A DNA stretch of 64,000 nt from positions 1,065 through 65,064 of the forward strand of contig JAZDPL010000061.1 in assembly GCA_043797665.1 (NCBI GenBank), in the 5' to 3' direction. Within the stretch, counting starts at the first letter, position 1. Every line of letters begins with the position of its first letter. The DNA comes from Candidatus Omnitrophota bacterium (lineage in GTDB: Bacteria; Ratteibacteria; UBA8468; MWAK01). Under the pieces are notes generated by a model. That model was not told where the DNA came from and made no database searches. It worked only from the letters and a program-made list of their open reading frames with translations. Below, piece by piece: positions 37,836-64,000 of this stretch. A program made the position numbers and the translations under genes.

Positions 37836-37860
37836 TACCTTCCAATTTTTAGAAACTTTA

Positions 37861-40663: not shown

Positions 40664-40774
40664 ATTTTTTCCTCCCTTTTACAGCCGAACAATTAAAAGA
40701 CGGAAGTACTGGTGGTGTTGACATCCGTCAATTAAAGATGTGTCCCCGGTATTTCACTATGGATAAAATTTACT

Positions 40775-41062: not shown

Positions 41063-41300
41063 TATTTACTCTGGCATGCCCATTTCACCGAATCGGCAAG
41101 TTCGAGTCTGGTCCCGATAGAAAACATCGGGATGCCACGACAGCAATAGAACATACGTTAAACCGTGTCAGGGTGGCGGAGGGAGACGACGTTAGAACCT
41201 ACCTAGTGGACAATTTAGCCTTGCCCACCATTTTTAACTACCATACTCCACCCTATTTGCTTATTATTGTACCACATTTTACGTTCTTCCCTTGACTGGC

Positions 41301-41652: not shown

Positions 41653-41654
41653 AT

Positions 41655-45074: not shown

Positions 45075-45115
45075 TATGCGCCTCTCAGAACCAACTCCCT
45101 GAATATAGTCCGCCT

Positions 45116-46150: not shown

Positions 46151-46170
46151 CTTTTAAATCCTCAAAGGAG

Positions 46171-47895: not shown

Positions 47896-47897
47896 AG

Positions 47898-49142
47898 TTA
47901 TAGGTCTCCTTTAAACGCGCGGTGCTGGAGGGAAGCGAAGAGTGAATCCAACTTCGCCAACGACACCCGCTGCTTCGCTTTCAATCGTTCCACCGTTTTC
48001 ACCTGCCCGGCAAACTCACGTTGTAGTGGAAACGGAGGGACCGAAACCTGTAGCTTGCTCAAGTTGCCTCTGGAGATCCTCTCACGAGTCGTACCGGTAG
48101 CGTGTCGGGCAACCTGCTTTCGAAACGAGTCGCTGTTGATGCATGAAACGAGCCAATAAATGTCGGGGCCGCCTTTCGACGGACGAATGATGCACACATC
48201 AACGACTGTCACGCACTCCTGATGTTCACCGGGGAAGATACACGCTCGTCCCAGTGGGTCAGGCATTCGGGCAACCAAGACATCGCCCGTGCGAAGGAAC
48301 GTGCAACGAAGATCTGCCGCCTTTTCGGGAGTTAAAAAACGAGCGGATTTGTTGAGGTAGATGCCATCACCAACATCAGCGAGCTGTATGAGCCTTACGG
48401 CTCCGTCTGGGTTTTGGTCCTTCGATTCAACCCAATCGCCGTCAACGAACACTTCTGCATTTTCTAGAACTTTAGCGAATGGCTTTGCCTCCCAATGCTT
48501 CGGATTCGTCACCGGATCACCAAACATCTCAAGAAAAATTGCTTGGGTGAGGATATCAAGTTGGGCGAGGGCATGGCGACGCTTGGCTCGCAACGCTTCC
48601 GCCCGGTCCAGTACCTCTGCAATCCGCCGCTGCTCCGCCAAGGGGGGGAGGGGAATACGCAGTTGCTTCAATAAACCGCTATTGAAGCCCGCCATAATGG
48701 CGCCGTGGCACTTAGCTTTTATCTGTGCGACAACGAGCGGGCAGAAATTGAGCATCCACGATACGTAAGGTGGCCACGCTGCATGTGTATCGAGGCTAAT
48801 CTTGATTAGATGACTTGAGATAATGGATTTCTCCAAGTCGTCTGGGACGACACACGTCCGTCCTACTGTTCCCATGTTCGTGACAAGGAGGTCCCCAGGT
48901 TTGACTGTGTATTGGCTGAGCTCGCGGAATTTCGGTTCAGGGATGTACTTCCGTTTTTCAGACACCAATTCGTTAGGAAAAACATCTTCAATCCCAAGTA
49001 CTCTGACACCAACTTCAGAATACTCGTGCTTCTTCAGCGCGCTGCCGAAAGGGCCAATCCGGATGGCGCTTTTCTCTGGAGCCGCGATTTGTTCCATCGT
49101 TGGGAAGCGCCAACCAACCGGCGGTTCGTAGGGGAGTCTCAC
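47898..49142 (-). CDS. hsdS: type I restriction enzyme specificity subunit
   Basis: 414 aa with two target-recognition halves, each followed by the conserved helix (LPPLAEQRRIAEVLDRAEALRAKRR and VPPFPLQREFAGQVKTVERLKAKQR). It overlaps hsdM by 4 nt. Confidence 0.9.
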   Translation of the reverse strand: MRLPYEPPVGWRFPTMEQIAAPEKSAIRIGPFGSALKKHEYSEVGVRVLGIEDVFPNELVSEKRKYIPEPKFRELSQYTVKPGDLLVTNMGTVGRTCVVPDDLEKSIISSHLIKISLDTHAAWPPYVSWMLNFCPLVVAQIKAKCHGAIMAGFNSGLLKQLRIPLPPLAEQRRIAEVLDRAEALRAKRRHALAQLDILTQAIFLEMFGDPVTNPKHWEAKPFAKVLENAEVFVDGDWVESKDQNPDGAVRLIQLADVGDGIYLNKSARFLTPEKAADLRCTFLRTGDVLVARMPDPLGRACIFPGEHQECVTVVDVCIIRPSKGGPDIYWLVSCINSDSFRKQVARHATGTTRERISRGNLSKLQVSVPPFPLQREFAGQVKTVERLKAKQRVSLAKLDSLFASLQHRAFKGDL

Positions 49143-50677
49143 TTCAGCATCCCCCCCAACTCCTTCATCCCCTGCTGAATCTCCGCCTCCAGATTGGAAA
49201 GGTCGGCGAGGATATCCTGCGGTGGGCGGTGCTGCACTTCTTCATGCACCACTTCCTTGTACCGGTTAAGGGAGAGGTCGTAGCCCTGTGCCATGAGGTC
49301 GGCCTTGGGCACACAGAAACTCTGCGCGGTGCGTGGGCGTTTACGTTCTGTTTTGTCCCGCTGTTTCCAGCGCGCCAGCACGTCAGGTAGGTTATTCTTA
49401 GCGAGTTCCTCGGCTGTCAACGCATGCGCGGGAACGGGACCGAGTTTTTCCTCGGGTAGAAACGGTTGGCGCTTGTCGTCCAAAGACCAGCCGTCGGCGT
49501 CGCAGTCGTAGAACCACACCTGGTCGGTCCCGCCGGAGTTGGTCTTGGTGAAAAGTAGAATGGCGGTGGACACGCCAGCGTAGGGCTTGAACACGCCGCC
49601 GGGCAACGAAATCACGGCGTCGAGCTTCTGCTCCTCGATGAGCATCTGGCGCAGGGTCTTGTGCGCGTTACTGGAGCCGAAGAGCACACCATCGGGCACA
49701 ATTACCGCGGCGCGGCCACCGGGCTTTAAGAGCCGCAGGAAGAGCGCGAGGAAGAGCAGTTCGGTCTTCTTAGTCTTGACGATCTGCTGGAGGTCCTTGG
49801 CGGTGTTCTCGTAGTCGAGTGACCCGGCGAAGGGCGGATTGGCTAAAACCAGGGTGTAACGTTCCTCTTCGCCGGCATGGTCTTCTGCGAGCGAGTCGCG
49901 GTAGCGGATGTCGGGGTTCTCCACACCGTGCAGCAACATGTTCATACTACCGATGCGCAACATGGTGTTGTCGAAATCGAAACCGTGGAAGGCATGCTGG
50001 TGGAAGTGCGTCTTCTGCTTCGCGTCGCGCAGGATCTCCGGGTGGCGCTCGCGTAGGTATTCACCCGCCGCGACGAGGAAACCGGCGGTGCCGCAAGCAG
50101 GGTCGCAGATTACGTCGCGTGGACCGGGGGCCGTCATCTCCACCATCAACCGGATGATGTGGCGCGGGGTACGGAACTGGCCGTTGGTGCCGGCGGTGGC
50201 GATTTTGCCAAGCATGTATTCGTAGAGGTCTCCCTTGGTGTCGCGGTCCTCCATCGGCACGCGGTCGATCAGGTCCACCACCTTGACCAGTAGTGCGGGT
50301 GTGGGTATGGTAAAACGAGCGTCCTTCATGTAATGTGCGTAGGTGGAACCGTTACCGACCTGAGTGCGGAGAAAGGGGAAGACGTGTTCGCTAACTATGG
50401 TAAACATCTCGTGCGCCTCGAAGTGTTTGAAGCGCGACCAGCGCAGATCGTCGTAGGGGCGGCCCTTGGGGTCTGTGCTCTTGGGGAAGACGCGCCGCTC
50501 CATCGGCGTTTTGAGCCGGGAGGACTTGTTCTCTTCCAGGGTGTGTAGGTCATCGAGACGACGCAGGAAGAGCAAGTAGGTGATTTGCTCGATGACTTCG
50601 AGCGGATTTGAGATGCCACCGGACCAAAAGGCGTCCCAGATGTGGTCGATTTGGTTGCGCAGTTCACCTGTAATCAC
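49139..50677 (-). CDS. hsdM: type I restriction enzyme N6-adenine DNA methyltransferase subunit
   Basis: 512 aa with the SAM-binding motif ICDPACGTAGFL and the catalytic LANPPFAG (NPPF). Confidence 0.95.
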   Translation of the reverse strand: MITGELRNQIDHIWDAFWSGGISNPLEVIEQITYLLFLRRLDDLHTLEENKSSRLKTPMERRVFPKSTDPKGRPYDDLRWSRFKHFEAHEMFTIVSEHVFPFLRTQVGNGSTYAHYMKDARFTIPTPALLVKVVDLIDRVPMEDRDTKGDLYEYMLGKIATAGTNGQFRTPRHIIRLMVEMTAPGPRDVICDPACGTAGFLVAAGEYLRERHPEILRDAKQKTHFHQHAFHGFDFDNTMLRIGSMNMLLHGVENPDIRYRDSLAEDHAGEEERYTLVLANPPFAGSLDYENTAKDLQQIVKTKKTELLFLALFLRLLKPGGRAAVIVPDGVLFGSSNAHKTLRQMLIEEQKLDAVISLPGGVFKPYAGVSTAILLFTKTNSGGTDQVWFYDCDADGWSLDDKRQPFLPEEKLGPVPAHALTAEELAKNNLPDVLARWKQRDKTERKRPRTAQSFCVPKADLMAQGYDLSLNRYKEVVHEEVQHRPPQDILADLSNLEAEIQQGMKELGGMLK

Positions 50678-52147: not shown

Positions 52148-52192
52148 TTACATATCCCACTTTACTGTCCACTATCTTTTACCCTGCCTGGT

Positions 52193-52470
52193 CCCCAGAA
52201 TCCCTTCCCCGCGCTCAGGTCCTACCCACCATACCTACTCTCCCCTGAGTAACTGTTGCATGCAACGGTTACTACTGACAATGTGGTGCCCTACCTCACC
52301 ACCCAGTTTCAATTCCTTCCTTTCTAATTTGCGATTTGCGAAGATATCACCCCAGAATTGATATTCTTCCCTCACCCAATCTCCAAAAATCCGTAAGAAG
52401 CGATTTTGGAGGTTGATTTAGCAGTTCTTCCCAACCACCATCCAAACGCAATTAATTCCGTTGTCGTTTA
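52193..52470 (+). repeat. type B copy B2 (hairpin 52248-52273) fused to a short type A core (A5, CGCAATTAATT at 52447-52457)
   Basis: CCCCAGAATCCCTTCCCCGCGCTCAGGTCCTACCCACCATACCTAC...GAGTAACTGTTGCATGCAACGGTTACT...TTTCTAATTTGCGATTTGCGAAGATATCACCCCAGAATTG... Confidence 0.8.
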
Positions 52471-52533
52471 ATTTATGGGTTGAAATGTGATAGAATAAGG
52501 GCAAGGAGCATCAGGCTAAAATGTTTCTTTTTG

Positions 52534-53346
52534 ATGGGCAAATGGAGGATTCCAATTAAAATAAGTCCGAAAAGGGTTGCATTAGGAATTGTATTCCTTT
52601 TTATTATACTTATACTCTTTTTTTGTAACGACATAAACCAAAGAAAAATAGCAAAACGTGCGGCGATAGAACAACAAAAGATTGCAGAGGAAAAACAAAA
52701 GATTACAGAGGAACAACGAAGGATCGCAGAGGAAAAAGCAGCAGATGTTAACGCCACGGACAATTACGGCAAGACCCCGCTACATCTGGCTGCAAACGAG
52801 GGTCGCACCGAAGCGGTGGAGGCATTACTCAAACGCGGAGCGGATGTTAGTGCAAAGAACAACGATGGTCAGACACCGCTGCACATAGCTGCTAACGCCG
52901 AGGTAGCTGAAGCATTGCTTAAACACGGAGCAGAAATTAATAGCAAAGATAATTACGGTCAGACTCCGCTGCATCAGGCTGCAAGATATGGTTGCGCTGA
53001 GGTGGCAGAGTTTTTAATTAGCAACCGGGCAGATGTCAACGCCAAAGATGGGTTTGGCAATACTCCGTTATTGTTGGCTATAATGGAGGGCAAAACCGAG
53101 GTGGCTAGTTTGTTACTTAAACACGGAGCAAAGGTTAACGTTAAGGCTGAATTTGGTTATACCCCGTTACACTTCGCTGCATCCGGGGGCCAAATCGACC
53201 AAACCGAGACGGTAGACTTGTTGCTCAAGTATGGAGCAAAGGTTAATGCCAGAAATGAGGAAGGTTATACCCCGCTGCACCTGGCTGTGCTCGCGGACCA
53301 CGCCGAGGCCGCTGCCTTGCTTCGGAAACACGGCGGAGTGGAGTAG
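52534..53346 (+). CDS. membrane-anchored ankyrin-repeat protein
   Basis: Start placed at MGKWRIP. One TM (VALGIVFLFIILILFF), a coiled EEKQK stretch, then about 6 ankyrin repeats (GKTPLHLAANEG...LLKRGADVSAKN etc.). Confidence 0.9.
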   Translation: MGKWRIPIKISPKRVALGIVFLFIILILFFCNDINQRKIAKRAAIEQQKIAEEKQKITEEQRRIAEEKAADVNATDNYGKTPLHLAANEGRTEAVEALLKRGADVSAKNNDGQTPLHIAANAEVAEALLKHGAEINSKDNYGQTPLHQAARYGCAEVAEFLISNRADVNAKDGFGNTPLLLAIMEGKTEVASLLLKHGAKVNVKAEFGYTPLHFAASGGQIDQTETVDLLLKYGAKVNARNEEGYTPLHLAVLADHAEAAALLRKHGGVE

Positions 53347-53516
53347 TAATATTATTCCAGGTTGGCTAACTGCGTGAAGTTAATCTGCTTGGGGGGCGAC
53401 TATGGAATTTCCCTCCGTTAGGAAAATGTTTCCATAGGCGGTTACAGCCCGGCCCAGGCAGGTTATCCTAACCTATCTGTCAAAGAGAAGGGAGTTCACT
53501 ACAGTTTGAGGAAAAA

Positions 53517-54023
53517 ATGAAAAAAGTGCTGATTTGGTGCGGTGTGGGGGTCTTTGTTATTGGCATTGCCTTTACGATTTTTTATAACACTCCAGATAGA
53601 AGAGCGAAAAGGCAAGCGCAACAAATTATAAAGGTTTCAGAATATATATACGAAGAAATGCAGGGGTCTGTGGGTGAAGCCAAAATAACCACTGCCCGGG
53701 TGCAGATTCAGAACCTGGAGACCGCTCTCCGGCTCTTTTATCTTGACACCGGATTTTATCCCACCACGGAGCAGGGTTTGTGGGCGCTGGTGATACCACC
53801 CCCACCCCCTTTCCCTTTCGAGAAATGTCGTAAGGGAGGATACTTGGAGAAAGATGTGGCAGGATACGGAGCGGTGCCCGAGGACCCCTGGGGTAATGAC
53901 TATATCTACCGCTCTCCGGGGCAAGAGAAACGGGAATATGAAATTATCTGCCTGGGATGGGACGGAAAAGAAGGCGGTACCGGAGTCGATGCGGATATCA
54001 AAAGTTGGGAACCTCCTAAGTAA
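53517..54023 (+). CDS. GspG-like (type II secretion major pseudopilin) globular domain protein lacking the prepilin motif
   Basis: [33 protein letters not shown]...[16 protein letters not shown]...[24 protein letters not shown] matches the GspG core. The N-terminus [19 protein letters not shown] has no G/FTLIE cleavage or methylation site. Confidence 0.7.
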
Positions 54024-54039
54024 TGGGGTGGGCTGTACT

Positions 54040-54135
54040 TCTACCAACACAAAAACCTTCCCCGACAAGTACCCCACCAGGCTGTCGCAATTAATTCTTT
54101 GACTACCCAAAGAGAAGGTGGTATTCTTTAATATG
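54040..54135 (+). repeat. type A element copy A6 with promoter module
   Basis: CCAACACAAAAACCTTCCCCGACAAGTACCCCACCAGGCTGTCGCAATTAATTC-TTGACT(54099-54104)-17 nt-TATTCT(54122-54127)-TTAAT-ATG(54133). Confidence 0.8.
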
Positions 54136-54181
54136 GGTGGAATTAGGAAGGTTGGCAGAAACTTAATCGTTTTCCACTAAT

Positions 54182-54838
54182 ATGATACTTACAATAAACG
54201 TTCATTTGGAGAAGGCTTTTGTTCAAAATGCTTCCTCGCTGGGTGCCGGTAGCGTCGCGATGCTCATGCTGGTTGGACCTTTCAGTAAGAATGTAGTGAC
54301 TTTAGCTGGCAAGGTTGTTCCAAAAGAGGGGAACTCGGCAACGCAAACTTTCCTGAAGAGATTGGACTGGGGGGAAAGTGTTCACATGGTTACAGTTCCT
54401 CAGAACTGTGAAATTCAGTTGGCTTTGTGTGTCGGCGGTACTCGCACTGGACAGATGGATATTGGAACGGTCAGCGTGGAAAATGAGCCGACAAGAACAA
54501 TCTATATTAAGTTTACGGGAGATGGAGTTGAGATAATTACGTCTCTGAATTTTCTGGCACAAAATCCTAGTAAAAAAGCAATAGAATCAATCTTACTTCT
54601 GGCAGAGAAAACAGATGAAGATACCACCTTACGGATTGAAGCATTGAATATTCTTGGGAAAACAGCTGATTGCGATGATTTGCTGCGGATAAAGGAAATC
54701 TTTTTCCGTCTGCGTGAAGGAGACCCGGCGGTTCGCGAAGCCGCTGCTAACGCAATCAAGGAGATAGAGACCAGAACAGGAACTCAAAGGGATATGCCCT
54801 GGTTCCTGAAACCTTTGATTGACCGGAGAAAGGGTTAG
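54182..54838 (+). CDS. 218-aa protein with C-terminal HEAT-like repeats
   Basis: The C-terminal ...RIEALNILGKTADCDDLLRIKEIFFRLREGDPAVREAAANAIKEI resembles PBS-lyase-type HEAT repeats. The N-terminal half is unassigned. Confidence 0.5.
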   Translation: MILTINVHLEKAFVQNASSLGAGSVAMLMLVGPFSKNVVTLAGKVVPKEGNSATQTFLKRLDWGESVHMVTVPQNCEIQLALCVGGTRTGQMDIGTVSVENEPTRTIYIKFTGDGVEIITSLNFLAQNPSKKAIESILLLAEKTDEDTTLRIEALNILGKTADCDDLLRIKEIFFRLREGDPAVREAAANAIKEIETRTGTQRDMPWFLKPLIDRRKG

Positions 54839-54849
54839 TGATTAAATCC

Positions 54850-55050
54850 CTCACCTAATCCCCAGAAACCCACAGGAAGCGATTTTGAAAAGCAAATTTA
54901 GGTATAAGATTTCATGATTGGTTCCCTACGATTGACCTTGGAGTACAGGAAGAAGTACAATTTGGGAGGTAGACATTTAACGGAAACGACTACCCGGACC
55001 AACACCAAACCACAGAATAGAAATTAGGTGATTGCGTCCACTAAAATCGG
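54850..55050 (+). repeat. 3' part of a type B element (B5) followed by type D element (D2)
   Basis: CTCACCTAATCCCCAGAAACCCACAGGAAGCGATTTTGAAAAGCAAATTTAGGTATAAG..., then AGGAAGAAGTACAATTTGGGAGG...GAAATTAGGTGATTGCGTCCACTAAAATC. Confidence 0.75.
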
Positions 55051-55073
55051 AGGACATACAATCGAGGAGGAAA

Positions 55074-55445
55074 ATGACCAGATTGGAAATTAAAGAGGGT
55101 GTATTAAAAGAAGCGAATGTGGAGAAACTATCCTTTAAGGAAATCGGGGAAAAAATTTGCTGTGGGCTAATGATTTCACTTACGATTATTCAAAAGTCTG
55201 ACCAAGAATTTACTAAAATGGAAGATTATAATTTGCCAGATTATACCTTGCAACAGGAGATTTTAAACGAATTTTCGCCGGAATATTATTTAAGTGGTAT
55301 AAGTATTCTAGGTTTTTCTCCTTCCGGTATAAGTTTTATTGACGAAAGTAATAAAGAGTATTATAAAGGATATATTCATGAAAAATCTGGAGTGGAAATA
55401 TTCACTAAAATCTCTTGGCCCTCAGTAAACAATAATAATCAATAA
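55074..55445 (+). CDS. 123-aa hypothetical protein
   Basis: Start moved to the ATG preceded by GAGGAGG (55064-55070). No motif recognised. Confidence 0.55.
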   Translation: MTRLEIKEGVLKEANVEKLSFKEIGEKICCGLMISLTIIQKSDQEFTKMEDYNLPDYTLQQEILNEFSPEYYLSGISILGFSPSGISFIDESNKEYYKGYIHEKSGVEIFTKISWPSVNNNNQ

Positions 55446-55479
55446 AGGGGTTTCGGGTTATTTGTTTGACCTGTTCTCG

Positions 55480-55600
55480 TACCCGGCGGGTGATTATCTA
55501 TCCGGTCCCCTCTGACAACACAAGAAACCTTTCCCGGCAAACCCACTCCACCATCCTGTTGCAATTAGTTTTCACCAGAATCCCTTGACCGGCCTTCTGG
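55480..55600 (+). repeat. type A element copy A7
   Basis: CCCGGCGGGTGATTATCTATCCGGTCCCCTCTGACAACACAAGAAACCTTTCCCGGCAAACCCACTCCACCATCCTGTTGCAATTAGTTTTC...CCCTTGACCGGCC. Confidence 0.8.
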
Positions 55601-55676
55601 CAGAGTGATAACATCTTGTTTGGTGTCCTGACAGAAACTTGACTATTTAAGGCTAATAAATTACCGAATTTTTAAT

Positions 55677-57107
55677 ATGAAGAAGGCAATCCTGTTATCT
55701 TGTATCACGGTTTGGTTATTATTTAGCATCTGCTTTCCTAAAGCCTGCCAGACCGGAGAAACTACCATAATCTTTGCTACAGAACTAACCGGTGATGCCC
55801 TCTACGAACAAGGCTTTAGCCTCAACAATCAAGAAAAATACCAAGAGGCTATACCTTATTTCGAAGAAGCCGTTAAAAGAAAAACAAACTTTTTTGAGGC
55901 AAATTACCAATTAGGAATTTGTTATCTGAAGATTAAGCAATTTGATAAAGCAAAACAAAATTTAATTTATGTAAAAACATTATCACAAGATAAAACATTA
56001 AAAGAGAAAACAAAATTTTTAATTGCCGAGATACCTAAAGAGATAGAAAAAGAGAAAAAGAAACAGGAAGAAAAAATAATAAGAAAAAAGAATGAAGAAT
56101 ATCGCGTAGGGGAAGAAGAAAAACGGTTATTAGAAAAAGAAAAACGGGCGTTAGTGAAAGATGTTAGTGATGCCCTCAAAAAGATAAGCACCTATAAAAT
56201 ACACTCGCTGCAGAACGCAGGTTTTGGCTTCAAAGTTGACTATTTCAAAGATGGTTATCTTGTTGCTTCTATATCGGGGTCCTGCACGGACGGTCACGGA
56301 ATTTATAGGGTAAGCAATGAGGTGAACATTTATTGGTCTTTTGGTGCCGAAGGTGGGGTTTTTCTTGAACCGAGAGAAGAGTTTGTTTACTTCCGCATAA
56401 CGAAAGAACAAAAAAGGGATTGGTATCCGGAAATAACAATTCTGCGTACTGTAAAAATACTAAAAAAAGACCTACCCAAAGAAGATTCTTTTAATTTTCC
56501 TCCAGAACGTTCGTCGGAACCAACAAAATTAGGCGGATTGACAACGTGGAAAGATAAAGATGGAACAATCCTCGGGATAATCGAGCCAGAGTCTCCTGAA
56601 TATACCTCCCGATTCGGGCGGATGAAAGCAGAACAGTTTTTTGAGCAAACCAGTTTTTATCAAGATTTTAATTTTACCGTAAAAAAGGAACTTGCCTACA
56701 AAGGCGGAGAGTTAAATAAATTCGGGATCAAAAAACGAATTTTTTATACAAGACCAAATGACGACAGCGTTAAAATTCTATTATGTGTTGATGATGAGCA
56801 ATATGTAAAAATTTTAGGTTTGACTTTCTCAAGGACAGATTCACAATATACGATATGGGTTAAGGCGTTATTAAATGAATGCGGAATAAACGAATCAACT
56901 TGTGGAGAGAATTATCCGCTTGACTTCATCCAGGGAAGTGTTATGCAGAACATCAGTAGGTCAGGACGACTTGATTTATCTGATTATTTTACCTCTTATG
57001 TTATAGAGTGTTGCAAAGATGGGGAAAATTATGGAGTTTTTGTTAGAAAACAAGTTATAGATATGGGTAAAATTCTTTATTTAGAAGGTGTACAAAGCGA
57101 AAAATAG
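55677..57107 (+). CDS. 476-aa secreted TPR-containing protein
   Basis: Signal peptide MKKAILLSCITVWLLFSICFPKA, TPR-like repeats (ALYEQGFSLNNQEKYQEAIPYFEEAV..ANYQLGICYLKIKQFDKA), a Lys/Glu-rich coil and an unassigned C-terminal domain. Confidence 0.6.
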   Translation: MKKAILLSCITVWLLFSICFPKACQTGETTIIFATELTGDALYEQGFSLNNQEKYQEAIPYFEEAVKRKTNFFEANYQLGICYLKIKQFDKAKQNLIYVKTLSQDKTLKEKTKFLIAEIPKEIEKEKKKQEEKIIRKKNEEYRVGEEEKRLLEKEKRALVKDVSDALKKISTYKIHSLQNAGFGFKVDYFKDGYLVASISGSCTDGHGIYRVSNEVNIYWSFGAEGGVFLEPREEFVYFRITKEQKRDWYPEITILRTVKILKKDLPKEDSFNFPPERSSEPTKLGGLTTWKDKDGTILGIIEPESPEYTSRFGRMKAEQFFEQTSFYQDFNFTVKKELAYKGGELNKFGIKKRIFYTRPNDDSVKILLCVDDEQYVKILGLTFSRTDSQYTIWVKALLNECGINESTCGENYPLDFIQGSVMQNISRSGRLDLSDYFTSYVIECCKDGENYGVFVRKQVIDMGKILYLEGVQSEK

Positions 57108-57189
57108 GCGTGGTGTACAAAATGAGCAAGAGCCAGGACAGGAAGGGGGTCCAAAGAACAAGTGCATATTCCGCCGCAAGGTAGCCACC

Positions 57190-57266
57190 CGTTCCGCTCA
57201 AGGTAACTTACCCCACCTCCCAGCCGCAATTTAGTTTCAATATCCCTTGACCGGATTCTGCTGGAC
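57190..57266 (+). repeat. type A element copy A8 (degenerate core CAGCCGCAATTTAGT)
   Basis: ...TACCCCACCTCCCAGCCGCAATTTAGTTTC...CCCTTGACCGGATTCTGCTGGAC, as at the A2/B1 junction. Confidence 0.7.
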
Positions 57267-57530
57267 CCCAGAATCCCTTCCCCGCGCTCAGGTTCCCCCA
57301 CCATACCGACTCTCCCCTGAGTTGCTGTTGAGGTCAACAGCAACTTCCGACACCGGGATGCCCTACCCCACCCCCCAGTCTCAATTTCTTCCTTTCTAAT
57401 TTGCGATTGGCGGCGATATCTCCCCAGAACTGATGTTCTCCCTCACCTAACTCCCCAGAAACCCGTAGGAAGCGATTTTGAAAAGCAAATTAAGGTATAA
57501 GGTTTCGTTATTGATTGCCTGCAATCTCTT
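57267..57530 (+). repeat. type B copy B3 (hairpin 57320-57345)
   Basis: About 90 percent alike with B1. The hairpin reads AGTTGCTGTTGA-GG-TCAACAGCAACT. Confidence 0.85.
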
Positions 57531-57557
57531 GACCGTATTCTGACGGAGTGGTAACAT
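57529..57557 (+). promoter_or_regulatory. candidate sigma70-type promoter for the Hsp70 operon
   Basis: TTGACC (57529-57534)-17 nt-TAACAT (57552-57557). The first ATG of the operon is 13 nt after the -10 box, implying a very short leader without an SD. Confidence 0.45.
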
Positions 57558-57570
57558 TTAGCCAATAAGA

Positions 57571-57921
57571 ATGGAGAACAATAATTATCATAGGAAAAAT
57601 GTGCTTACCTTTTATAACTTGCCATTCATATTTGCTAGGGGAATCAACATGGTTTTGCTTTTATTTGCACTCAACCGTTTGCCCTATGACTATTATACTC
57701 TCCTGCGATTGATTACTTGCGGAGTTAATGGTTATGGAGTCTATATTGCTCTAAAATTACGGAAGACCACATGGGTTTGGATATTTGGGATCATCGCTTT
57801 TCTTTTTAACCCTATCTTCACTGTTCATTTGACCAGAGACACTTGGCAAATCATCGACTTGATTACTGCTGTTACCTTGTTTGTATCCTTTTTCCAAATT
57901 ATGAACCGAACAAAAGCGTAG
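57571..57921 (+). CDS. 116-aa polytopic membrane protein
   Basis: Three hydrophobic helices (MVLLLFALNRL, LLRLITCGVNGYGVYIAL, WVWIFGIIAFLFNPIF). First gene of a tightly packed operon. Confidence 0.6.
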   Translation: MENNNYHRKNVLTFYNLPFIFARGINMVLLLFALNRLPYDYYTLLRLITCGVNGYGVYIALKLRKTTWVWIFGIIAFLFNPIFTVHLTRDTWQIIDLITAVTLFVSFFQIMNRTKA

Positions 57922-57927
57922 GTTCTT

Positions 57928-58581
57928 ATGGACGAAATCTTGGATACCAAAAACATCAAGAGGGATAATTGGTTTGTAAGGCGTATAAAAAATTATCAAG
58001 TCTTAACTTTTACATTCCTTTTCCTTACCATTTATCGTTTTTCCATACTTACAACTGTATACTGCGTAAACAGAAAAAATTTCTTAGAAATCTATAAATT
58101 AAGTTACTGGTTTTTTGTAGTCGCAATACCAATTTTCTACTTCCTGATATGGTTTTTGGTAACTTCAATTGTTTCAAGATATACATTACAATCATTAAGG
58201 GGAAAATTCTATCGCCACCCTATCGCATTTATTATTCTTACCATTCTTTATATTCTTGATTTGCCTCATTATCTTTCCAATTTTGCTCATGGTCGTGGAT
58301 TGTTTAAATTATTTGACGTTTTTGAAATAGTTATCTATTACGGTCTGTTGTCCTTCTTGTGGTATATATTTGCCTGCTGGATTAGTGAAAAGATTTGGAA
58401 AAGGGGTATTATATGGAATTGGTATAAAAAATTTATAGATAAGGTATTCGTAATATTTCCTGTAATTTATAGATTTACCTTGGGTTTAATTGTGGCTTTG
58501 TTTATTTTTATAGTTCTTTTCTCCAGTTTGGCGTGGATTTTCCATTATTCCGGTCTTGATTTACGAAAATTAGGATTTTAA
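57928..58581 (+). CDS. 217-aa polytopic membrane protein
   Basis: At least 5 hydrophobic segments. It starts 6 nt after the previous stop. Confidence 0.6.
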   Translation: MDEILDTKNIKRDNWFVRRIKNYQVLTFTFLFLTIYRFSILTTVYCVNRKNFLEIYKLSYWFFVVAIPIFYFLIWFLVTSIVSRYTLQSLRGKFYRHPIAFIILTILYILDLPHYLSNFAHGRGLFKLFDVFEIVIYYGLLSFLWYIFACWISEKIWKRGIIWNWYKKFIDKVFVIFPVIYRFTLGLIVALFIFIVLFSSLAWIFHYSGLDLRKLGF

Positions 58582-58599
58582 TCTTAAAGGAACGACCAT

Positions 58600-58857
58600 A
58601 TGAAATCAATTGGGAAAATAATCGGGTACATACTTTGGATAAGCAGCGGGATTCTAATGTTTATTTTTTGGTTATCTGCAATGAGTAAATGGCTTGGTTT
58701 TTGGGGTGTTGTTATTGCTCTTGTGTTATCTCCTGGTTTGGTAATTTTTCCAATCGTATTTTGGATTGTGGAACATGTATTCCCTGTATTTTACTTCATA
58801 GTTTGGGGAATAGGAATAGCTGGATTAATCATCGCCGGCATTTCCAGCGATACCTAA
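58600..58857 (+). CDS. 85-aa polytopic membrane protein
   Basis: Three hydrophobic helices, with a GGAACGA purine stretch before the ATG. Confidence 0.55.
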   Translation: MKSIGKIIGYILWISSGILMFIFWLSAMSKWLGFWGVVIALVLSPGLVIFPIVFWIVEHVFPVFYFIVWGIGIAGLIIAGISSDT

Positions 58858-58942
58858 CTGACATTAAAATGCAGCAAATCTAAAACAGCCAATTGTTTCC
58901 ACTAAATTCTGAAGACACACAGAAGATATACACTTTAAATAT

Positions 58943-59482
58943 ATGGGTGATTTTTTGAATTTCCTTACTCGAATCAAAAACCCCCTAATCTTAGTGCTAA
59001 CTGTTTTCTTCATTATGCTCTTTATCTTGCTTCATCTTGCTTTGCGAAAAAATAGGCGAAACAATATTTTCTTCACAAACAAGTTCGATGAGTTGTATCT
59101 GAAAATCAAAGAGGATATCAATTTCGCCGTAACCCCCAAATTCGTTAGTTTGTCCTCAGATATGAATGATCTTGTGGAGTTAACCGTTGAAGTTTGGAGA
59201 ATCGAGCAACGAATAATAAAATCTTTACCGGCCTTATCGGAAAACCAAAGGAATGGTTTAGAAAATTCTATCCGAAGATTGAGAAGATATCTTGAAAAAC
59301 ACGACATCATGATTGTAGATCATACGAACCAGAAGTTTAATGATGGGCTTAATCTTGATGTCTTGTCCGTTGAGAAGGATTCATCGTTGACAGAACCAAT
59401 TATCAAGGAAACAATCGAACCGACAATCATGTACAAAGGCCTGGTCGTCAGGAAGGCCAAAATTATTTTATTGAGCAAATAG
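58943..59482 (+). CDS. membrane-anchored GrpE-like nucleotide-exchange-factor homolog
   Basis: N-terminal TM (LILVLTVFFIMLFILLHLAL). The C-terminal LEKHDIMIVDHTNQKFNDGLNLDVLSVEKDSSLTEPIIKETIEPTIMYKGLVVRKAKIIL aligns position by position with my recollection of the E. coli GrpE beta-domain (LEKFGVEVI...G..DPN.H.A....E......V......GY.L.GR.IR.A.V.V). Confidence 0.5.
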   Translation: MGDFLNFLTRIKNPLILVLTVFFIMLFILLHLALRKNRRNNIFFTNKFDELYLKIKEDINFAVTPKFVSLSSDMNDLVELTVEVWRIEQRIIKSLPALSENQRNGLENSIRRLRRYLEKHDIMIVDHTNQKFNDGLNLDVLSVEKDSSLTEPIIKETIEPTIMYKGLVVRKAKIILLSK

Positions 59483-59500
59483 AGAATAACGTAGAATACC

Positions 59501-62014
59501 ATGGCTAATGAAAACATCCAAATTGGTATTGATTTGGGAACAACAAATTCAGAAGTTGTTATTAATAGCAATGGCGTTATCGAGGTCGTTAAAAATGCAT
59601 TTGGGGATGAGTATACACCTTCTGTTTTCGGTTTTGATAAGTCAAAGAACGGAACGGTTGGCAAAAGAGCACATGAGCGGCTTTATAAAAATACATCGGA
59701 AGAAGAACTTAGGAATAATAAGGCGGAAGTCAAGAGGCTAATGGGGACATCCGAAACCGTCTACTTTGAAAGAACTGGCCTTAAAATGAATGCTGAAGAG
59801 ATTTCTGCTGAAATTCTCAAGAGCTTAAAAGAAGATGTCTTGAGAAAATATCCGGACTTTGATACTTTGGCCGCAGTCATCACTGTACCTGCCTATTTCT
59901 CTGTCTTGCAGTCTGAGGCCACCAAGAGGGCTGGTAATCTCGCTGGGTTCAAATACGTGGTTCTGCTGCAGGAGCCCATTGCGGCGGCAATCTCATATGG
60001 ATTCATGAACGCGAAAAACGAAAACTGGCTCATTTACGATCTTGGCGGTGGAACATTCGATGTCGCTTTAATCTCCTCGAGGGATGGAGTTTTGTCAGTA
60101 TTGGGTCATAATGGTGACAACTTCTTGGGAGGTAAGGATTTTGATTGGTTAATTGTTGATCGTGTGATTGTTCCGAAAATTCTTGAAAAATATTCAATGA
60201 GCAACTTCGATAGAGGCAATGTCAAATATAGAAGTGTTTTTGCGAAATTGAAATACATTGCCGAAACATTAAAAATTGATCTGGCGCAATATGGTAAAAC
60301 CTCTATCGAAATAGATGGTATAGGCAAAGATGGTTTAGACAAAGAGATATGTTTTTCCATTACTTTTTTGAGAAAAGAATTTGAGGAGTTAATCAAGCCA
60401 ATGGTCGACCGGACGATCGAACTAGCAAAAAAAACCTTGAAAGAAGCCGGGATTAAAAATACTTCAGTCGAGAGAACTATTCTTGTTGGTGGCCCCACCC
60501 AGATTCCTTACATCAGAGAAAGGCTTAACAATGATCTCGAAATAACAGTTGATTCCTCTGTTGATCCACTTACTGTTGTGGCTAAAGGAGCCGGCGTGTT
60601 TGCTATCAGTCAAAAGATTCCAGGGGAATTTTTTGGGGGTGAACCCCGGAAAATAAAAAAAGGTACTCAAACTTTAAAATTGAATTATGAGACTCTAACT
60701 TCTGAACCCGAACCGACGATTAGCGGCATCGTAGATGACTTTAAGAATTCGGAAGATGAATATTACATACAAATTCAATCTGAAAGCGGATTTTACAGTG
60801 GTTCAAAGACTAAATTAAAAAATGGCACATTTTTTGACACTGTTGTGCTTGAACCGAATAAAACAAACTTGTTCTGGATATATCTTTTCGACCAGCAAGG
60901 TAATTCTATCCCAATTGATCCTGACTCGTTTACAATCACTCATGGTTTGTCTGTTTCTGGCGCTCCGATATCCCACTCTATAGGAATTGCCGTTGTTAAA
61001 AAAGATATCAGGGGAGGATTCGTTCCCACCGAAGTATTTGAGGAATTTTTCGAAAAAGGCTCCATTCTACCACTAAAAAAGACGGAGCCATTCAAAACAG
61101 TTAGGAGATTGAAGAGAAATGAGAATGACAACCCTCTTTGGATCAAGATTGGCGAGGGCGAATCTGATATTCCAGATAGAAATGTCTATGTTTGTACACT
61201 GGGAATAAAAGGAAGTGATTTGCCATATGATTTACCAGAAGGCACTGATATCGAGATAACTGTTGAGGTCAACGAGTCTCGCGAGCTTTTTGTAACAGCT
61301 TATATCCCCCTAATCGACCTTCGCCTCAATGCTCGTTCTACATTCAAAGATGAAGTAGTCAACGTCAAAGATATGGAATCCGAACTTGCTATAGAAATGG
61401 ATAGAGCTAGAGTTATTGCTAAAAATTGTTCCACGGAAAAACGCAACAAAATTGATAATATACTTCAATCCGTGCGCACCAGTTTAAAAAATGCTCACCT
61501 TGACGAAGATGAAAAGCGAAAGGCTAACAAGCAATTGAAGGATCTTAAGACTTATGTTGACCAGTTGCAAAAGGAAACTGAAATGCCACAATTGATTGAA
61601 ATATTTAACGCTGGCATTGAACAAGTACAAAAAATAATCGATGAGTTTGCCGATCAGAAAGAGAAAAACACCAACAATGAACAACTGAGAAAGATAAAGG
61701 CCGAGGGAGAAAAAGCAATATGTGAAAATGATAAACCTTTGCTGAGTAGAATTAATGAACAAATTGAAGAATTTCGAATGAAGACCCTGTTATCCAATCC
61801 AGAGATGTGGGTTTATTACTTCCAGCAAATTACTCAAGGCGATAAGAAATTTATAAATGAAAAAGAAGCGAATTATTACATTGAAAAAGGGAAAAGGTCA
61901 ATTGAGTCTGGTGATGTTGAAGATCTAAAACATTGTGTCCGCAATTTGATTTCATTACTCCCAGAGGAGGATCAGGAAATAATGAAGAGAAATCTTGCAG
62001 GCATTACTCATTAA
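59501..62014 (+). CDS. atypical 837-aa Hsp70-family ATPase
   Basis: Actin-fold NBD motifs IGIDLGTTNSEV, DLGGGTFDVALI, ILVGGPTQIPYIRERL and DPLTVVAKGAGVFA. About 130 aa of extra sequence follows, then SBD-beta-like strands (APISHSIGIAV, IKIGEGES, IEITVEVNESRELFVTAY) and a long helical tail. Confidence 0.85.
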   Translation: MANENIQIGIDLGTTNSEVVINSNGVIEVVKNAFGDEYTPSVFGFDKSKNGTVGKRAHERLYKNTSEEELRNNKAEVKRLMGTSETVYFERTGLKMNAEEISAEILKSLKEDVLRKYPDFDTLAAVITVPAYFSVLQSEATKRAGNLAGFKYVVLLQEPIAAAISYGFMNAKNENWLIYDLGGGTFDVALISSRDGVLSVLGHNGDNFLGGKDFDWLIVDRVIVPKILEKYSMSNFDRGNVKYRSVFAKLKYIAETLKIDLAQYGKTSIEIDGIGKDGLDKEICFSITFLRKEFEELIKPMVDRTIELAKKTLKEAGIKNTSVERTILVGGPTQIPYIRERLNNDLEITVDSSVDPLTVVAKGAGVFAISQKIPGEFFGGEPRKIKKGTQTLKLNYETLTSEPEPTISGIVDDFKNSEDEYYIQIQSESGFYSGSKTKLKNGTFFDTVVLEPNKTNLFWIYLFDQQGNSIPIDPDSFTITHGLSVSGAPISHSIGIAVVKKDIRGGFVPTEVFEEFFEKGSILPLKKTEPFKTVRRLKRNENDNPLWIKIGEGESDIPDRNVYVCTLGIKGSDLPYDLPEGTDIEITVEVNESRELFVTAYIPLIDLRLNARSTFKDEVVNVKDMESELAIEMDRARVIAKNCSTEKRNKIDNILQSVRTSLKNAHLDEDEKRKANKQLKDLKTYVDQLQKETEMPQLIEIFNAGIEQVQKIIDEFADQKEKNTNNEQLRKIKAEGEKAICENDKPLLSRINEQIEEFRMKTLLSNPEMWVYYFQQITQGDKKFINEKEANYYIEKGKRSIESGDVEDLKHCVRNLISLLPEEDQEIMKRNLAGITH

Positions 62015-62028
62015 TAAAGGAAGTGAAA

Positions 62029-63936
62029 ATGGCTGTATTTGAAGAAAAAAAGGTTGTTGTTTGTTCCCGTGGCCATCTCTTTTTTACGGTAAATAAGACA
62101 TCAGTATCTGCTATTATTTGTCCTGAATGTGGAGAGAAAATTATCGATGCCCTCCCCACTCAACCGAGAAAGACAATTTTGGCGCCTGCAGCGGAAAAAC
62201 ATGAGGTTCAAAGTGCGGAAGCCCCAGCCATTCAAGACAAACTGGATCAGGAGATGGATTTAGCACCAAAAATTACCACGCCCGTTATTTCGAATCAAAA
62301 ATCAATGGAGCGGGGTAATACGTCTAATACATTCAAAAATAACGCTTATTGCATTCTTGGGTTGGAAACTTCGGCGAACCAAAAAGATATCCTTAAGCGA
62401 TCAAGGGAAATTATCAATCACCTAAAAATTGGCGAACATCCGGAATACGACTTAGATGTCAATCTATTCAAAGACTTCAGGACGGAAGAATCGGTAAAAG
62501 AAGCCGTGCAAAGATTGCAGACCCCAAAGAAAAAAATCAAAGAATATTTTTTCTGGTTCCAAATAGCGGATAGCATCGATCAACAAGCACTGGGATTACT
62601 TAGAAGCAAAGATTACTTAGGTTCCTCGGTCACCTGGCAAAATGCATCTGACACCAATAATGCAAGGTTTTACTCCTACAAAAGGAATCTTGCTATTTTG
62701 TATTGCTTGTTACTTTCGATAGGAAATAACGAGCATTATCTTCAAGATTCACTATTAATATGGAAGGAACTTCTAGGTTCCGAGGATTTTTGGACTTTCT
62801 TTTCTAAAGAATATAAATTACAGGATGAACAAACAACCAGCCAAGAAATAATCACCGATTTTGAAAATCAGGCTGTCGGTTATTTAGCTGATATATATAC
62901 TGAACTGCATCAAATTCACAATAACGCCGAATATATAAATGAGTTTCAAAAAATCTTTTCGACAAAAGGTGAAAAGATAGAAAGGAATGTATTGGAACCA
63001 GCTTACCAAGCGATTAATGATGCTACCAAAAAGTTAGAAGAGATGAAGGTGGGCGAAGACGGTGTACTTACTAAGCAAGAGACGGAAGAAATAAAAAACC
63101 TCTATGGATCAATTCAGCTTGAACTAAATAAACTAATCGACCTAGGTTTTTATGATGACAGTCAAACGAAAATAATGCGGGATAAGGTGGCGAACGCATT
63201 GAAAACCATCGTCTTGGACCTACACAACAATCTAAGCGAAACAGAAAAGGCTCTTTCCCTGTTAAATATTGCCTTGAAAATAGTCGGCACATCCAGTTTA
63301 GAAGCAACAATAAAACATGAAATTCAAACTCTCGAGAAGATTAAAAAGAATACCGACTTAATTAACCCCGTCAGTGACTTGATTGCTCAAGAAAAATATG
63401 AAGAAGCATTGCAGCGCCTCTATTTTGACCAAGCAAAATACCAAGAGGACCCAGAACTGCAAAAATTGTATGATCGGCAAAAGAAATTTTTTGTTTCCAA
63501 CATTGCATCTAGGAATAATAGTTTAGCATGGGGCCATTTAGAACTCTCGCGGATGGATTTGGCAAAGCTCCTTTCGCGGCAGGCTGGAGATTTAATCTAC
63601 GACAACATTATTCTATATAACTTCAATAGAAAGGCTATTGACGAGATGCTAGCGGAAATCCATTCAAATCTCACAAGGTTCAAATCTTGCCACATTAAAC
63701 GATGCTATGAATATCGAAATTCCTTCGCGAAATTGGCCAATGAGCAATTCAAAGGACAACCTGAGGAAATGGCATTGGTGATTTTGGTTGATTCATACTT
63801 GTTTCCCCACCTTATTAACCTACACAAAAGGAAAAAAGAGGCAGATACGATGTACAATATTGGCAGCTATACGTGGTGGTTCGGTGTGGGTTTAATTTTT
63901 TATATAGCCGGCTGGATTCATGAAAATAGGGGTTGA
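62029..63936 (+). CDS. 635-aa zinc-ribbon / J-like domain / helical / C-terminal TM protein
   Basis: Start at MAVFEEKK, 14 nt after the Hsp70 stop. CSRGH...CPECG is a zinc ribbon. NAYCILGLETSANQKDILKRSREIINHLKIGEHPEYD resembles J-domain helices II-III with HPE in place of HPD. The last 25 aa are hydrophobic (WWFGVGLIFYIAGWI). Confidence 0.55.
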   Translation: MAVFEEKKVVVCSRGHLFFTVNKTSVSAIICPECGEKIIDALPTQPRKTILAPAAEKHEVQSAEAPAIQDKLDQEMDLAPKITTPVISNQKSMERGNTSNTFKNNAYCILGLETSANQKDILKRSREIINHLKIGEHPEYDLDVNLFKDFRTEESVKEAVQRLQTPKKKIKEYFFWFQIADSIDQQALGLLRSKDYLGSSVTWQNASDTNNARFYSYKRNLAILYCLLLSIGNNEHYLQDSLLIWKELLGSEDFWTFFSKEYKLQDEQTTSQEIITDFENQAVGYLADIYTELHQIHNNAEYINEFQKIFSTKGEKIERNVLEPAYQAINDATKKLEEMKVGEDGVLTKQETEEIKNLYGSIQLELNKLIDLGFYDDSQTKIMRDKVANALKTIVLDLHNNLSETEKALSLLNIALKIVGTSSLEATIKHEIQTLEKIKKNTDLINPVSDLIAQEKYEEALQRLYFDQAKYQEDPELQKLYDRQKKFFVSNIASRNNSLAWGHLELSRMDLAKLLSRQAGDLIYDNIILYNFNRKAIDEMLAEIHSNLTRFKSCHIKRCYEYRNSFAKLANEQFKGQPEEMALVILVDSYLFPHLINLHKRKKEADTMYNIGSYTWWFGVGLIFYIAGWIHENRG

Positions 63937-63937
63937 A

Positions 63938-64000
63938 TATGGCACAAGAAAAGCAACATCTCGATATTGACCTCGGATTTTTAGATAAAGTCGATTCCTC
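63938..64000 (+). CDS. start of a further operon gene (partial, MAQEKQHLDIDLGFLDKVDS...)
   Basis: The ATG lies 1 nt after the preceding stop and the frame is open to the window end. Confidence 0.4.

Follow-up and report, generated by a model that had tools for sequence, protein, structure and literature searches.

A membrane-tethered Hsp70 cassette on an Omnitrophota contig is a good candidate for a chaperone-driven defense system

What is the role of a chaperone gene row that lies in AT-rich DNA of a Candidatus Omnitrophota bacterium and centers on an unusual Hsp70? The row stands at the end of the window analyzed here, a stretch of 64,000 nucleotides (nt) from contig JAZDPL010000061.1 (assembly GCA_043797665.1, positions 1,065 to 65,064 of the forward strand); all numbering is window-based, and this 64-kb window is the part of the source genome that was examined. 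The list of open reading frames (ORFs) gives seven + strand genes at 57571 to 64000, the seventh cut by the window end, packed with gaps of 2 to 85 nt (6, 18, 85, 18, 14, and 2 nt along the row), as an initial annotation made from the sequence had described. The six complete ORFs are real genes, each with homologues at 42 to 74% identity or better. The region consists of two adjacent modules, a trio of membrane protein genes (module 1, 57571 to 58857) and a cassette that encodes the Hsp70 and its putative partners (module 2, 58943 to past 64000). Module 2 appears to be a mobile accessory, membrane-tethered chaperone/unfoldase cassette whose most probable role is in conflict (anti-phage or anti-mobile-element), a reading to which we give a probability of about 0.55. 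The composition of the cassette is much more certain than its role. The features of module 2, with lengths and residue positions in amino acids (aa), are as follows.

58943 to 59482, + strand: cassette gene 1, GrpE-like protein of 179 aa (Pfam GrpE match, transmembrane [TM] prediction)
59501 to 62014, + strand: cassette gene 2, Hsp70 of 837 aa (Pfam HSP70)
59501 to 60610, + strand: nucleotide-binding domain (NBD) of Hsp70, aa 1 to 370 (Pfam HSP70 at residues 8 to 368)
60641 to 60940, + strand: FN3/Ig-like insertion of Hsp70, approximately aa 381 to 480 (AlphaFold2 model and Foldseek)
60968 to 62014, + strand: β-domain of the substrate-binding domain (SBD) of Hsp70 (approximately aa 490 to 605) and helical C-terminal region (aa 606 to 837) (profile, hhalign)
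62029 to 63936, + strand: cassette gene 3, J-like protein of 635 aa (profiles, AlphaFold2 model)
62029 to 62325, + strand: zinc-ribbon-like segment and disordered linker of the J-like protein (model, weak NCBIfam match)
62326 to 62556, + strand: J-like domain, aa 100 to 176 (model helices, profile against the PDB, hhalign)
62557 to 63936, + strand: all-α TPR-like solenoid and hydrophobic C-terminal helix of the J-like protein (AlphaFold2 model)
63862 to 63921, + strand: the hydrophobic C-terminal helix itself, approximately aa 612 to 631, a possible tail anchor
63939 to 64000, + strand: cassette gene 4, tagged membrane protein, cut by the window end (N-terminal tag match)

The cassette recurs elsewhere as a conserved row. 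When the non-NBD half of the Hsp70 was used to scan genomes, one per species, 60 loci were found among approximately 185,000 species genomes; ORFs were compared across 64 loci, tags and neighbors were scanned across 67 loci, and all loci were translated with table 11. Over the 64 loci the order is GrpE-like (53 loci), Hsp70 (64), J-like (58), tagged membrane protein, and AAA ATPase (54). The GrpE-like, Hsp70, and J-like genes, which the initial annotation had grouped as one chaperone set, are co-conserved in 53 to 58 of the 64 related loci.

The Hsp70 was expected to be an 837-aa protein with a large insertion, and the domain searches bear this out. Its NBD matches Pfam HSP70 (PF00012; E 4.7e-78, residues 8 to 368), and the residues equivalent to DnaK D8, K70, E171, D194, T199, and D201 are kept in 119 to 120 of 120 homologues. 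These conserved catalytic residues suggest that the protein is ATPase-competent. The C-terminal 470 residues lie outside the Pfam model, yet they are strongly conserved across the family. A profile of the C-terminal half matches solely Hsp70 SBDs in the PDB (DnaK, E 8.5e-4), and hhalign aligns this half to E. coli DnaK residues 407 to 488. Taken together, these matches indicate a β-sandwich SBD followed by a helical lid. The insertion between NBD and SBD, approximately 100 residues, is without counterpart in the alignment with DnaK and HscC. The AlphaFold2 model of aa 378 to 490 (pLDDT 88.1) is a β-sandwich with six β-strands, and Foldseek comparison of the insertion with the PDB returned the FN3 domain of POMGNT2 (E 2.5e-4) as well as SoxZ, RbmA, and fibronectin III domains at TM-scores of 0.4 to 0.6. 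The protein ends in the tail motif N-L-[SA]-G-I-T-[RH], of which N446, G449, I450, and T451 are invariant in alignment A1.

Comparison with recognized Hsp70 groups sets this protein apart. It scores 265 and 258 bits against the NCBIfam DnaK equivalog models, for which the cut-offs are 648 and 822, and is also far below the HscA cut-off, so the suggestion that the locus is unlikely to be the housekeeping dnaK locus was upheld. More than 100 full-length homologues share 61 to 73% identity, almost all of them 835 to 840 aa long. When the non-NBD half was used as the query, the family extended to 1070 representatives, clustered at 50% identity and scoring E <= 1e-3, with lengths that nearly always fall at 815 to 850 aa.

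The J-like protein is the component whose assignment requires the most careful wording. Its gene most likely begins at ATG 62029, which is preceded by the Shine-Dalgarno sequence AAGGAAG, rather than at TTG 61933, where the mechanical ORF opens. The AlphaFold2 model (pLDDT 79.8 overall) has five parts, which are, in order, a zinc-ribbon-like N-terminus, a disordered linker, a four-helix unit (residues 104 to 176), an all-α solenoid, and a C-terminal hydrophobic helix. In the zinc-ribbon-like segment (C12, H16, C31, and C34; NCBIfam YgiT zinc finger, E 0.014) the strands at residues 8 to 39 are modeled with low confidence, and residues 41 to 98 are disordered. The ribbon and the linker are found in the window copy only; they are absent from all 119 of the other homologues listed, for which query coverage is <=85%, and most homologues begin at the J-like domain. 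A Foldseek search with the whole model returned nothing beyond weak TPR-type matches (E >= 5e-3), the second of which by rank was P58IPK/DNAJC3. The C-terminus forms a long helix in the model and has a hydrophobic consensus but was not called TM at the hydropathy threshold used. This hydrophobic C-terminus is common to one subfamily, whereas the other subfamily has a soluble, β-rich C-terminus.

The helices of the J-like domain, at residues 106 to 110, 118 to 133, 153 to 164, and 166 to 174, are modeled at a pLDDT of approximately 90 and follow one another in the order found in a J domain. No Pfam domain matches the J-like protein or its relatives. When the N-terminal 115 residues of 28 members were made into a profile and compared with the PDB, 26 of the 29 matches were J domains, with marginal E values of 0.009 to 1.3. 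The hhalign comparison gave E 1.4e-4 against E. coli DnaJ and E 1.8e-4 over 59 columns against a reference profile built from six E. coli J domains, with a probability of approximately 50%. The His-Pro-Asp (HPD) motif is not conserved in the 28 aligned members, in which His and Pro are variable; in the corresponding loop the invariant positions are limited to Y41 and D44, which hhalign aligns with the Y and the D of the DnaJ sequence Y-H-P-D. No canonical J domain was found in the cassette loci fetched. The label "J-like" is therefore reasonable on this sequence evidence, and a J domain in the strict sense is not indicated. Of the earlier description of a zinc-ribbon/J-like protein with a C-terminal TM anchor, the ribbon, the J-like fold, and a hydrophobic terminal helix stood, and the domain proved to be without a conserved HPD.

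The absence of this motif has a parallel on the Hsp70 side. The residues R167, E206, D211, and E217 are J-domain contacts in DnaK (PMC8215388), and they are replaced in 111 to 120 of the 120 Hsp70 homologues, depending on the residue. The replacements at the J-contact positions among these homologues are R167→V, N170→Q, T173→I, E206→A/S, D211→S, and E217→S. Because the HPD motif is missing from the J-like domain and the DnaK contact residues are missing from the Hsp70, it is doubtful that the two proteins work by the classical J-domain mechanism.

The 179-aa product of the first cassette gene has an N-terminal TM helix (aa 7 to 37), a helical region, and a C-terminal β-domain. Residues 100 to 175 match positions 88 to 162 of the 165-position Pfam GrpE profile (PF01025), with E 4.9e-4 and 20.2 bits, under the gathering score of 25.8. 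The Pfam model matches 17 of 23 members of the family, with a best E value of 5.5e-9, and a profile of the family found no GrpE chain among PDB sequences. The profile matches are weak but consistent, and at the family level the designation GrpE-like is accepted, in agreement with the earlier prediction of a TM-anchored GrpE-like protein. The gene lies immediately upstream of the Hsp70 gene in 53 of the 64 loci, and this gene position is what marks the protein as a candidate nucleotide-exchange factor.

The gene after the J-like gene is cut off by the window end at 62 nt, and related loci show what is likely to lie beyond. Every gene between the J-like and AAA genes carries, at residues 5 to 26, a tag with the consensus L-D-I-D-L-E-F-L-D, of the pattern Φ-x-Φ-D-Φ-x-F-L-D. 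The window gene carries it as LDIDLGFLD at 63960 to 63986, and its N-terminus, MAQEKQHLDIDLGFLDK, resembles the N-termini of the genes that fill this slot elsewhere. Among all six-frame ORFs of the 67 loci (approximately 1.1 Mb), the tag expression matched 46, all of them + strand ORFs in the slot between J-like and AAA genes and always with the match close to the N-terminus; there is exactly one match in the window. The remainder of the tagged protein is of two types, one in which a single TM helix and an S/T-rich linker lead to an external domain with a pair of conserved cysteines, and the other with a four-TM RDD domain. One to three tagged genes stand in tandem per locus, and loci without a separate tagged gene have longer J-like proteins. 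For example, in loci of the Saccharibacteria type the J-like protein is itself fused to a TM helix, an S/T-rich linker, and the same Cys-containing external domain, an arrangement seen in L041, L045, and L039. A fusion of this Rosetta-stone type suggests that the J-like and tagged proteins work together physically, and that the tag may be the handle by which they associate.

For this genome, an AAA gene downstream is inferred from its occurrence in 54 of the 64 related loci. Judging from these loci, the cassette continues past the window end with one or more tagged membrane proteins and an AAA ATPase, the latter outside the reach of the initial annotation. In related loci the AAA protein is approximately 358 aa long and combines one classical AAA domain of the Cdc48/VAT/p97 type with an N-domain of its own of approximately 95 aa. 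The homologue from L001 matches VAT with per-domain E values of 1.5e-38 and 2.3e-47 as well as Pfam AAA and AAA_lid_3, and its Walker A, Walker B, aromatic pore loop, arginine fingers, and second region of homology are intact.

These components suggest how the cassette might operate. The J-like/TPR adaptor would bind the tagged membrane protein or proteins and pass them to Hsp70, and the GrpE-like factor, held at the membrane by its N-terminal TM helix, would reset and recycle Hsp70 there. The AAA ring would unfold or extract the client. Some Hsp70 tails dock on TPR domains through the sequence EEVD, and by analogy the conserved tail N-L-x-G-I-T may dock on a partner. The tagged membrane proteins, with the tag on their cytoplasmic N-terminus, would be the sensor, the effector, or both, and ATP-driven remodeling would switch their state.

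The distribution and setting of the cassette are the evidence on which its role has to be judged. Carriers include Patescibacteria, Proteobacteria, Bdellovibrionales, Omnitrophota, Bacteroidota, Melainabacteria, Elusimicrobia, and archaea, the last represented by a complete Woesearchaeota chromosome and by long contigs of other archaea, DPANN included. Taxon labels of metagenome-assembled genomes (MAGs) are partly unreliable: two MAGs of one study, labeled Gracilibacteria and Bacteroidales (L008 and L009), share a 9.4-kb contig at 100% identity, and L005 and L007, labeled Gammaproteobacteria and Patescibacteria, are 92 to 96% identical, flanks included. The G+C (GC) content of the cassette is well under that of its flanks in the window, in L005, L018, L034, and L053, and in other loci. 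In the window the region has a GC content of 0.33 to 0.38, compared with approximately 0.52 in the remainder. The island that holds both modules is AT-rich and, as judged from these features, horizontally acquired. Integrases are nearby in 7 loci, and DNA methyltransferases are close by in 12. Cassette genes are fragmented in L047 (Nitrosopumilus), L048 (Methanoregulaceae), L052, and L021, which suggests that these copies are decaying; fragmentation in Gracilibacteria (L061 and L008) may be due in part to an alternative genetic code.

A distant version of the cassette is found in a cultured organism, on the Haliscomenobacter hydrossis plasmid pHALHY02 (L067; NC_015512.1, record positions 8539 to 16064). 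In it, the J-like and GrpE-like proteins have hhalign probabilities of 93.5% and 79%, respectively; it also encodes an 841-aa Hsp70 and TerB and adjoins BREX. Its AAA ATPase is fused to a PD-T4-6-like Ser/Thr protein kinase. The J-like and GrpE-like proteins of the plasmid are annotated as "CFI-box-CTERM domain protein" and "septum formation initiator," respectively.

Known or candidate defense genes occur in 7 of 10 independent annotated contexts, at <=10 kb in six other loci and at approximately 8 to 16 kb in the window. These contexts are the following.

Window: type I restriction-modification (RM) system, GmrSD, and YhcG
L004: RM and PDC-S19 (E 5e-132)
L070: PDC-S01
L071: PDC-S37/Hhe-like kinase-helicase
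L072: AbiEii and HEPN_AbiV
L080: CBASS cyclase and HORMA
L081: Gabija GajA and GajB

The placement of the row in AT-rich accessory DNA near defense-type genes was thus confirmed, and it is this gene neighborhood that makes a defense role probable. Several observations weigh against the interpretation. No defense gene was found in three of the ten contexts (L001, L003, and L082), the L001 cassette adjoins the housekeeping genes cysS and DNA polymerase III gamma/tau, and the ten contexts are a small, non-random sample drawn from long contigs and counted without a genomic background. No nuclease, NADase, or other classical effector was found in the cassette. In PADLOC-DB 2.0, the Hsp70, the J-like protein, and the tagged membrane proteins have no match and the GrpE-like protein has a chance-level match only, and the match of the AAA protein to IetA is generic for classical AAA domains. 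The J-like assignment is statistically marginal (E approximately 0.01 against the PDB, 1e-4 in pairwise hhalign, and no Pfam match), the GrpE-like protein of the window itself scores under the Pfam threshold, the AAA gene of this genome is placed beyond the window end by inference, and the taxon labels of some carrier MAGs are unreliable.

The cassette might instead be a specialized chaperone for membrane protein biogenesis or quality control that has no part in conflict and, like HscC with DjlB/DjlC, inserts, folds, extracts, or recycles its own tagged proteins, for example, surface proteins of small episymbiotic cells. The membrane anchoring of three or four components would fit such a function, as would the extracytoplasmic domains with conserved cysteines in the tagged proteins, the many carriers that are Patescibacteria or DPANN archaea, the position of the L001 cassette among housekeeping genes, and the lack of a classical effector enzyme; moreover, membrane proteins are the presumed targets of HscC-DjlC (PMC8215388). 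However, the distribution is sparse and patchy (60 loci in approximately 185,000 species genomes), GC content is under that of the flanks, integrases and defense genes are frequent neighbors, the distant variant is fused to a defense-type kinase and adjoins BREX, and several copies are degraded (e.g., L047, L048, and L052). Patchiness, low GC content, such neighbors, kinase fusion, and decay are typical of accessory, conflict-related genes and argue against dedicated biogenesis, which we consider unlikely.

Cargo or a morphogenesis module of a phage or prophage, in which virus-encoded chaperones would serve virion assembly, lysis timing, or superinfection exclusion, is suggested by a few loci: in L003, head-morphogenesis and major-capsid genes of a phage-like region flank the cassette, and in L012 and L070 it stands between a lysis-type amidase gene and an integrase. 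PHROGs families of unknown function also match the Hsp70 NBD and the AAA ATPase. Yet a search of 2.9 million IMG/VR viral contigs and 50,697 GenBank phage records found no relative, phage structural genes are near only 1 of 67 loci, and most contexts are chromosomal islands; the interval between lysis gene and integrase also carries prophage defense cargo and so fits a conflict system too. A viral module is consequently very improbable. That the row is simply the diverged housekeeping dnaK-grpE-dnaJ locus of this genome is scarcely credible, even though its order of GrpE-like, Hsp70, and J-like genes resembles that of grpE-dnaK-dnaJ operons and no other dnaK gene is visible within the 64-kb window. 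The DnaK equivalog scores of 258 to 265 bits fall far below the cut-offs of 648 to 822, an FN3-like domain interrupts the canonical NBD-linker junction, and neither an HPD motif nor a class A or B DnaJ architecture is present. In addition, the locus is an AT-rich island, the cassette is 61 to 73% identical across unrelated phyla, and some carriers hold degraded copies.

Among characterized systems, E. coli HscC with DjlB and DjlC had been named as the closest paradigm for this row. As a functional analogy it is indeed the nearest, but the two are not related beyond the Hsp70 superfamily. Both combine a specialized, non-DnaK Hsp70 with a dedicated J-type partner (approximately 480 to 550 aa) encoded beside it; DjlB and DjlC have a hydrophobic C-terminal anchor and are presumed to act at the membrane (PMC8215388), and their J domains also deviate from HPD, reading HPE. 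HscC differs in its length of 556 aa, in lacking the FN3 insertion, and in keeping R167, and the window Hsp70 shares 34% identity with it, in the NBD only. The HscC locus is without a GrpE-like gene, tagged membrane proteins, or an AAA ATPase. The J-like family gave hhalign probabilities of 0.1% against DjlC and 0.8% against DjlB, with a weak, non-significant alignment to the J-domain region of DjlB (E 0.071). Homology of the J-like protein to DjlB/DjlC was rejected because no significant similarity was found.

The bi-chaperone formed by DnaK-DnaJ-GrpE and ClpB likewise combines an Hsp70, J-type targeting factors, and GrpE-type exchange factors with a hexameric AAA motor. ClpB is a two-ring Hsp100, whereas the AAA protein of the cassette is a single-ring Cdc48/VAT-type ATPase with its own N-domain of approximately 95 aa. 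The cassette further differs in encoding all partners together, most of them membrane-anchored, in not conserving the J-contact residues, and apparently in encoding its clients itself. The AAA domain of the cassette aligns to VAT and to p97 D1 and D2 with per-domain E values of 1e-38 to 1e-47. Cdc48, too, pulls proteins out of membranes. Unlike Cdc48, p97, and VAT, the cassette protein, which is known from related loci only, has one AAA domain rather than two, an unrelated N-domain, and a gene that stands with an Hsp70 system.

Predicted conflict systems centered on a GAP1-N2 GTPase (Kaur, Burroughs, Iyer and Aravind 2020, PMC7159879) contain an Hsp70, a GrpE, and a protein in which FNIII is fused to DnaJ or TPR and thus share the domain vocabulary of the cassette, namely, Hsp70, GrpE, J, TPR, and FN3. 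In this comparison, made by description only, the cassette has no GTPase gene, carries its FN3-like domain inside the Hsp70 rather than in a J-protein, and adds the AAA ATPase and the tagged proteins; membership in the GTPase-centered HSP70 systems was rejected on gene content, as no GTPase is encoded. The AAA protein matches the PADLOC models for IetA (E 4e-37), but in the generic AAA domain only and more weakly than it matches VAT, and assignment to IetAS was rejected because the cassette has no IetS protease. CnuD of the CoCoNuT systems consists of degenerate Hsp70-like domains attached to McrBC, and membership in these systems was likewise rejected on gene content, there being no McrB.

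The cassette was not described in the literature searched (Hsp70 with defense, AAA, GrpE, or Cdc48; DUF6804; HscC/DjlC). It is new as an Hsp70 system with its own architecture and partners and, if its role is confirmed, new as a kind of defense system as well. A recent review recognizes three prokaryotic Hsp70 types, DnaK, HscA, and HscC (PMC8215388), and the family described here, which numbers approximately 1000 clusters at 50% identity and keeps to a length of approximately 830 aa, would be a fourth. Its FN3-like domain sits where the allosteric linker normally begins. The loss of the canonical HPD-R167 contact on both partners offers a test case for rewired J-domain signaling. Because one operon encodes an Hsp70 system, a Cdc48-type unfoldase, and the apparent tagged clients, client recognition is directly testable. 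Should a defense function underlie the association with defense genes, the cassette would be the first immune system with an Hsp70 machine at its core, and one common to bacteria and archaea. As a more specific proposal, which we hold tentatively and at less than even odds, the cassette would represent a new class of prokaryotic immune system in which a membrane-tethered Hsp70, an exchange factor, an HPD-less J-like adaptor, and a Cdc48-like unfoldase hold, release, or extract tagged sensor/effectors upon infection, a class built on a fourth prokaryotic Hsp70 type and shared horizontally by bacteria (including Patescibacteria) and archaea (including DPANN). The cassette is a good candidate for a new chaperone-driven defense system.

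Module 1, which precedes the cassette, comprises three genes.

57571 to 57921, + strand: trio gene 1, DUF6804 protein of 116 aa (Pfam PF20619, E 6.4e-26)
57928 to 58581, + strand: trio gene 2, family-less membrane protein of 217 aa with 23 homologues
58600 to 58857, + strand: trio gene 3, protein of 85 aa (74% identity to an 86-aa protein of L073)

Hydropathy analysis predicts 3, 5, and 3 TM segments in the 116-, 217-, and 85-aa proteins, respectively, consistent with their description as small polytopic membrane proteins. A DUF6804 gene stands before or after the cassette in 21 of the 64 loci, and the window DUF6804 protein is 44% identical to that of L073. The 217-aa protein has no match in Pfam, NCBIfam, PADLOC, or PHROGs; its 23 homologues share 42 to 63% identity and are nearly all of approximately 217 aa. 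Neither it nor the 85-aa protein has a homologue in any other cassette locus among the 64 compared, and the trio (217 aa, 86 aa, and DUF6804) is present without Hsp70 in L073 to L076. In L073 the 86-aa protein follows the 217-aa homologue. Because two of its members are without homologues in other cassettes and the trio recurs without Hsp70, it is regarded as separate from the cassette. One conserved operon of all seven genes was therefore rejected, although the tight row and the co-conservation of the GrpE-like, Hsp70, and J-like genes stood. In L073 (9001 to 11123) and L074, which are the same contig from two samples and were counted as one context, genes for a ThsB-like protein with a TIR domain and for an 8xMP protein come directly after the trio. 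These settings suggest that the trio is itself an accessory module, possibly linked to defense.

Upstream of the gene row are two intergenic features.

57245 to 57525, no strand assigned: repeated intergenic element upstream of the gene row (blastn copies in the window)
57529 to 57557, + strand: sigma-70-like promoter candidate, TTGACC-17-TAACAT with a TG upstream, 14 nt before the first ATG (consensus scan)

A promoter-like module had been thought to drive the whole row. The site is present, but promoter-like sites in the region were not more frequent than in shuffled sequence (16 versus 21.2 ± 4.5), so a single promoter for the row is not established. The repeat that had been placed upstream of the row, and called type B, does exist: blastn of 57108 to 57570 found four further window copies of the element, at 37053 to 37338 (87%), 52188 to 52408 (83%), 54847 to 54927 (89%), and 41296 to 41381 (80%). 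The element is approximately 280 bp long and relatively GC-rich, precedes several genes in the low-GC parts of the window, and has no match in the plasmid collection.

The defense island of the window lies on the - strand at 41655 to 50677 and encodes HsdR (41655 to 45074), HsdS (47898 to 49142), and HsdM (49139 to 50677). Inserted between hsdR and hsdS are genes for a YhcG/DUF1016 PD-(D/E)xK nuclease (45116 to 46150) and a GmrSD type IV restriction enzyme (46171 to 47895). The interval between this RM island and the gene row (52480 to 57107) encodes an ankyrin-repeat protein (52480 to 53346), a type II secretion pseudopilin G (53517 to 54023), a HEAT-repeat protein (54182 to 54838), and a TPR protein (55677 to 57107) that has a signal-peptide-like N-terminus and a weak PADLOC match to SduA (E 1e-4).

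A second low-GC block at 32000 to 42000 (GC content of 0.38 to 0.41) may be another acquired island. It contains two ORFs of approximately 552 aa without a Pfam match (32209 to 33870, - strand, and 37861 to 39519, + strand), a gene for a DUF1802 protein (36037 to 36627), and a weak nucleoside 2-deoxyribosyltransferase-like match (39767 to 40663). Elsewhere in the window, a giant ORF of 3622 aa occupies 14984 to 25852 on the - strand, and ORFs of 1005 and 977 aa follow it on the same strand, at 11884 to 14901 and 8883 to 11816, respectively.

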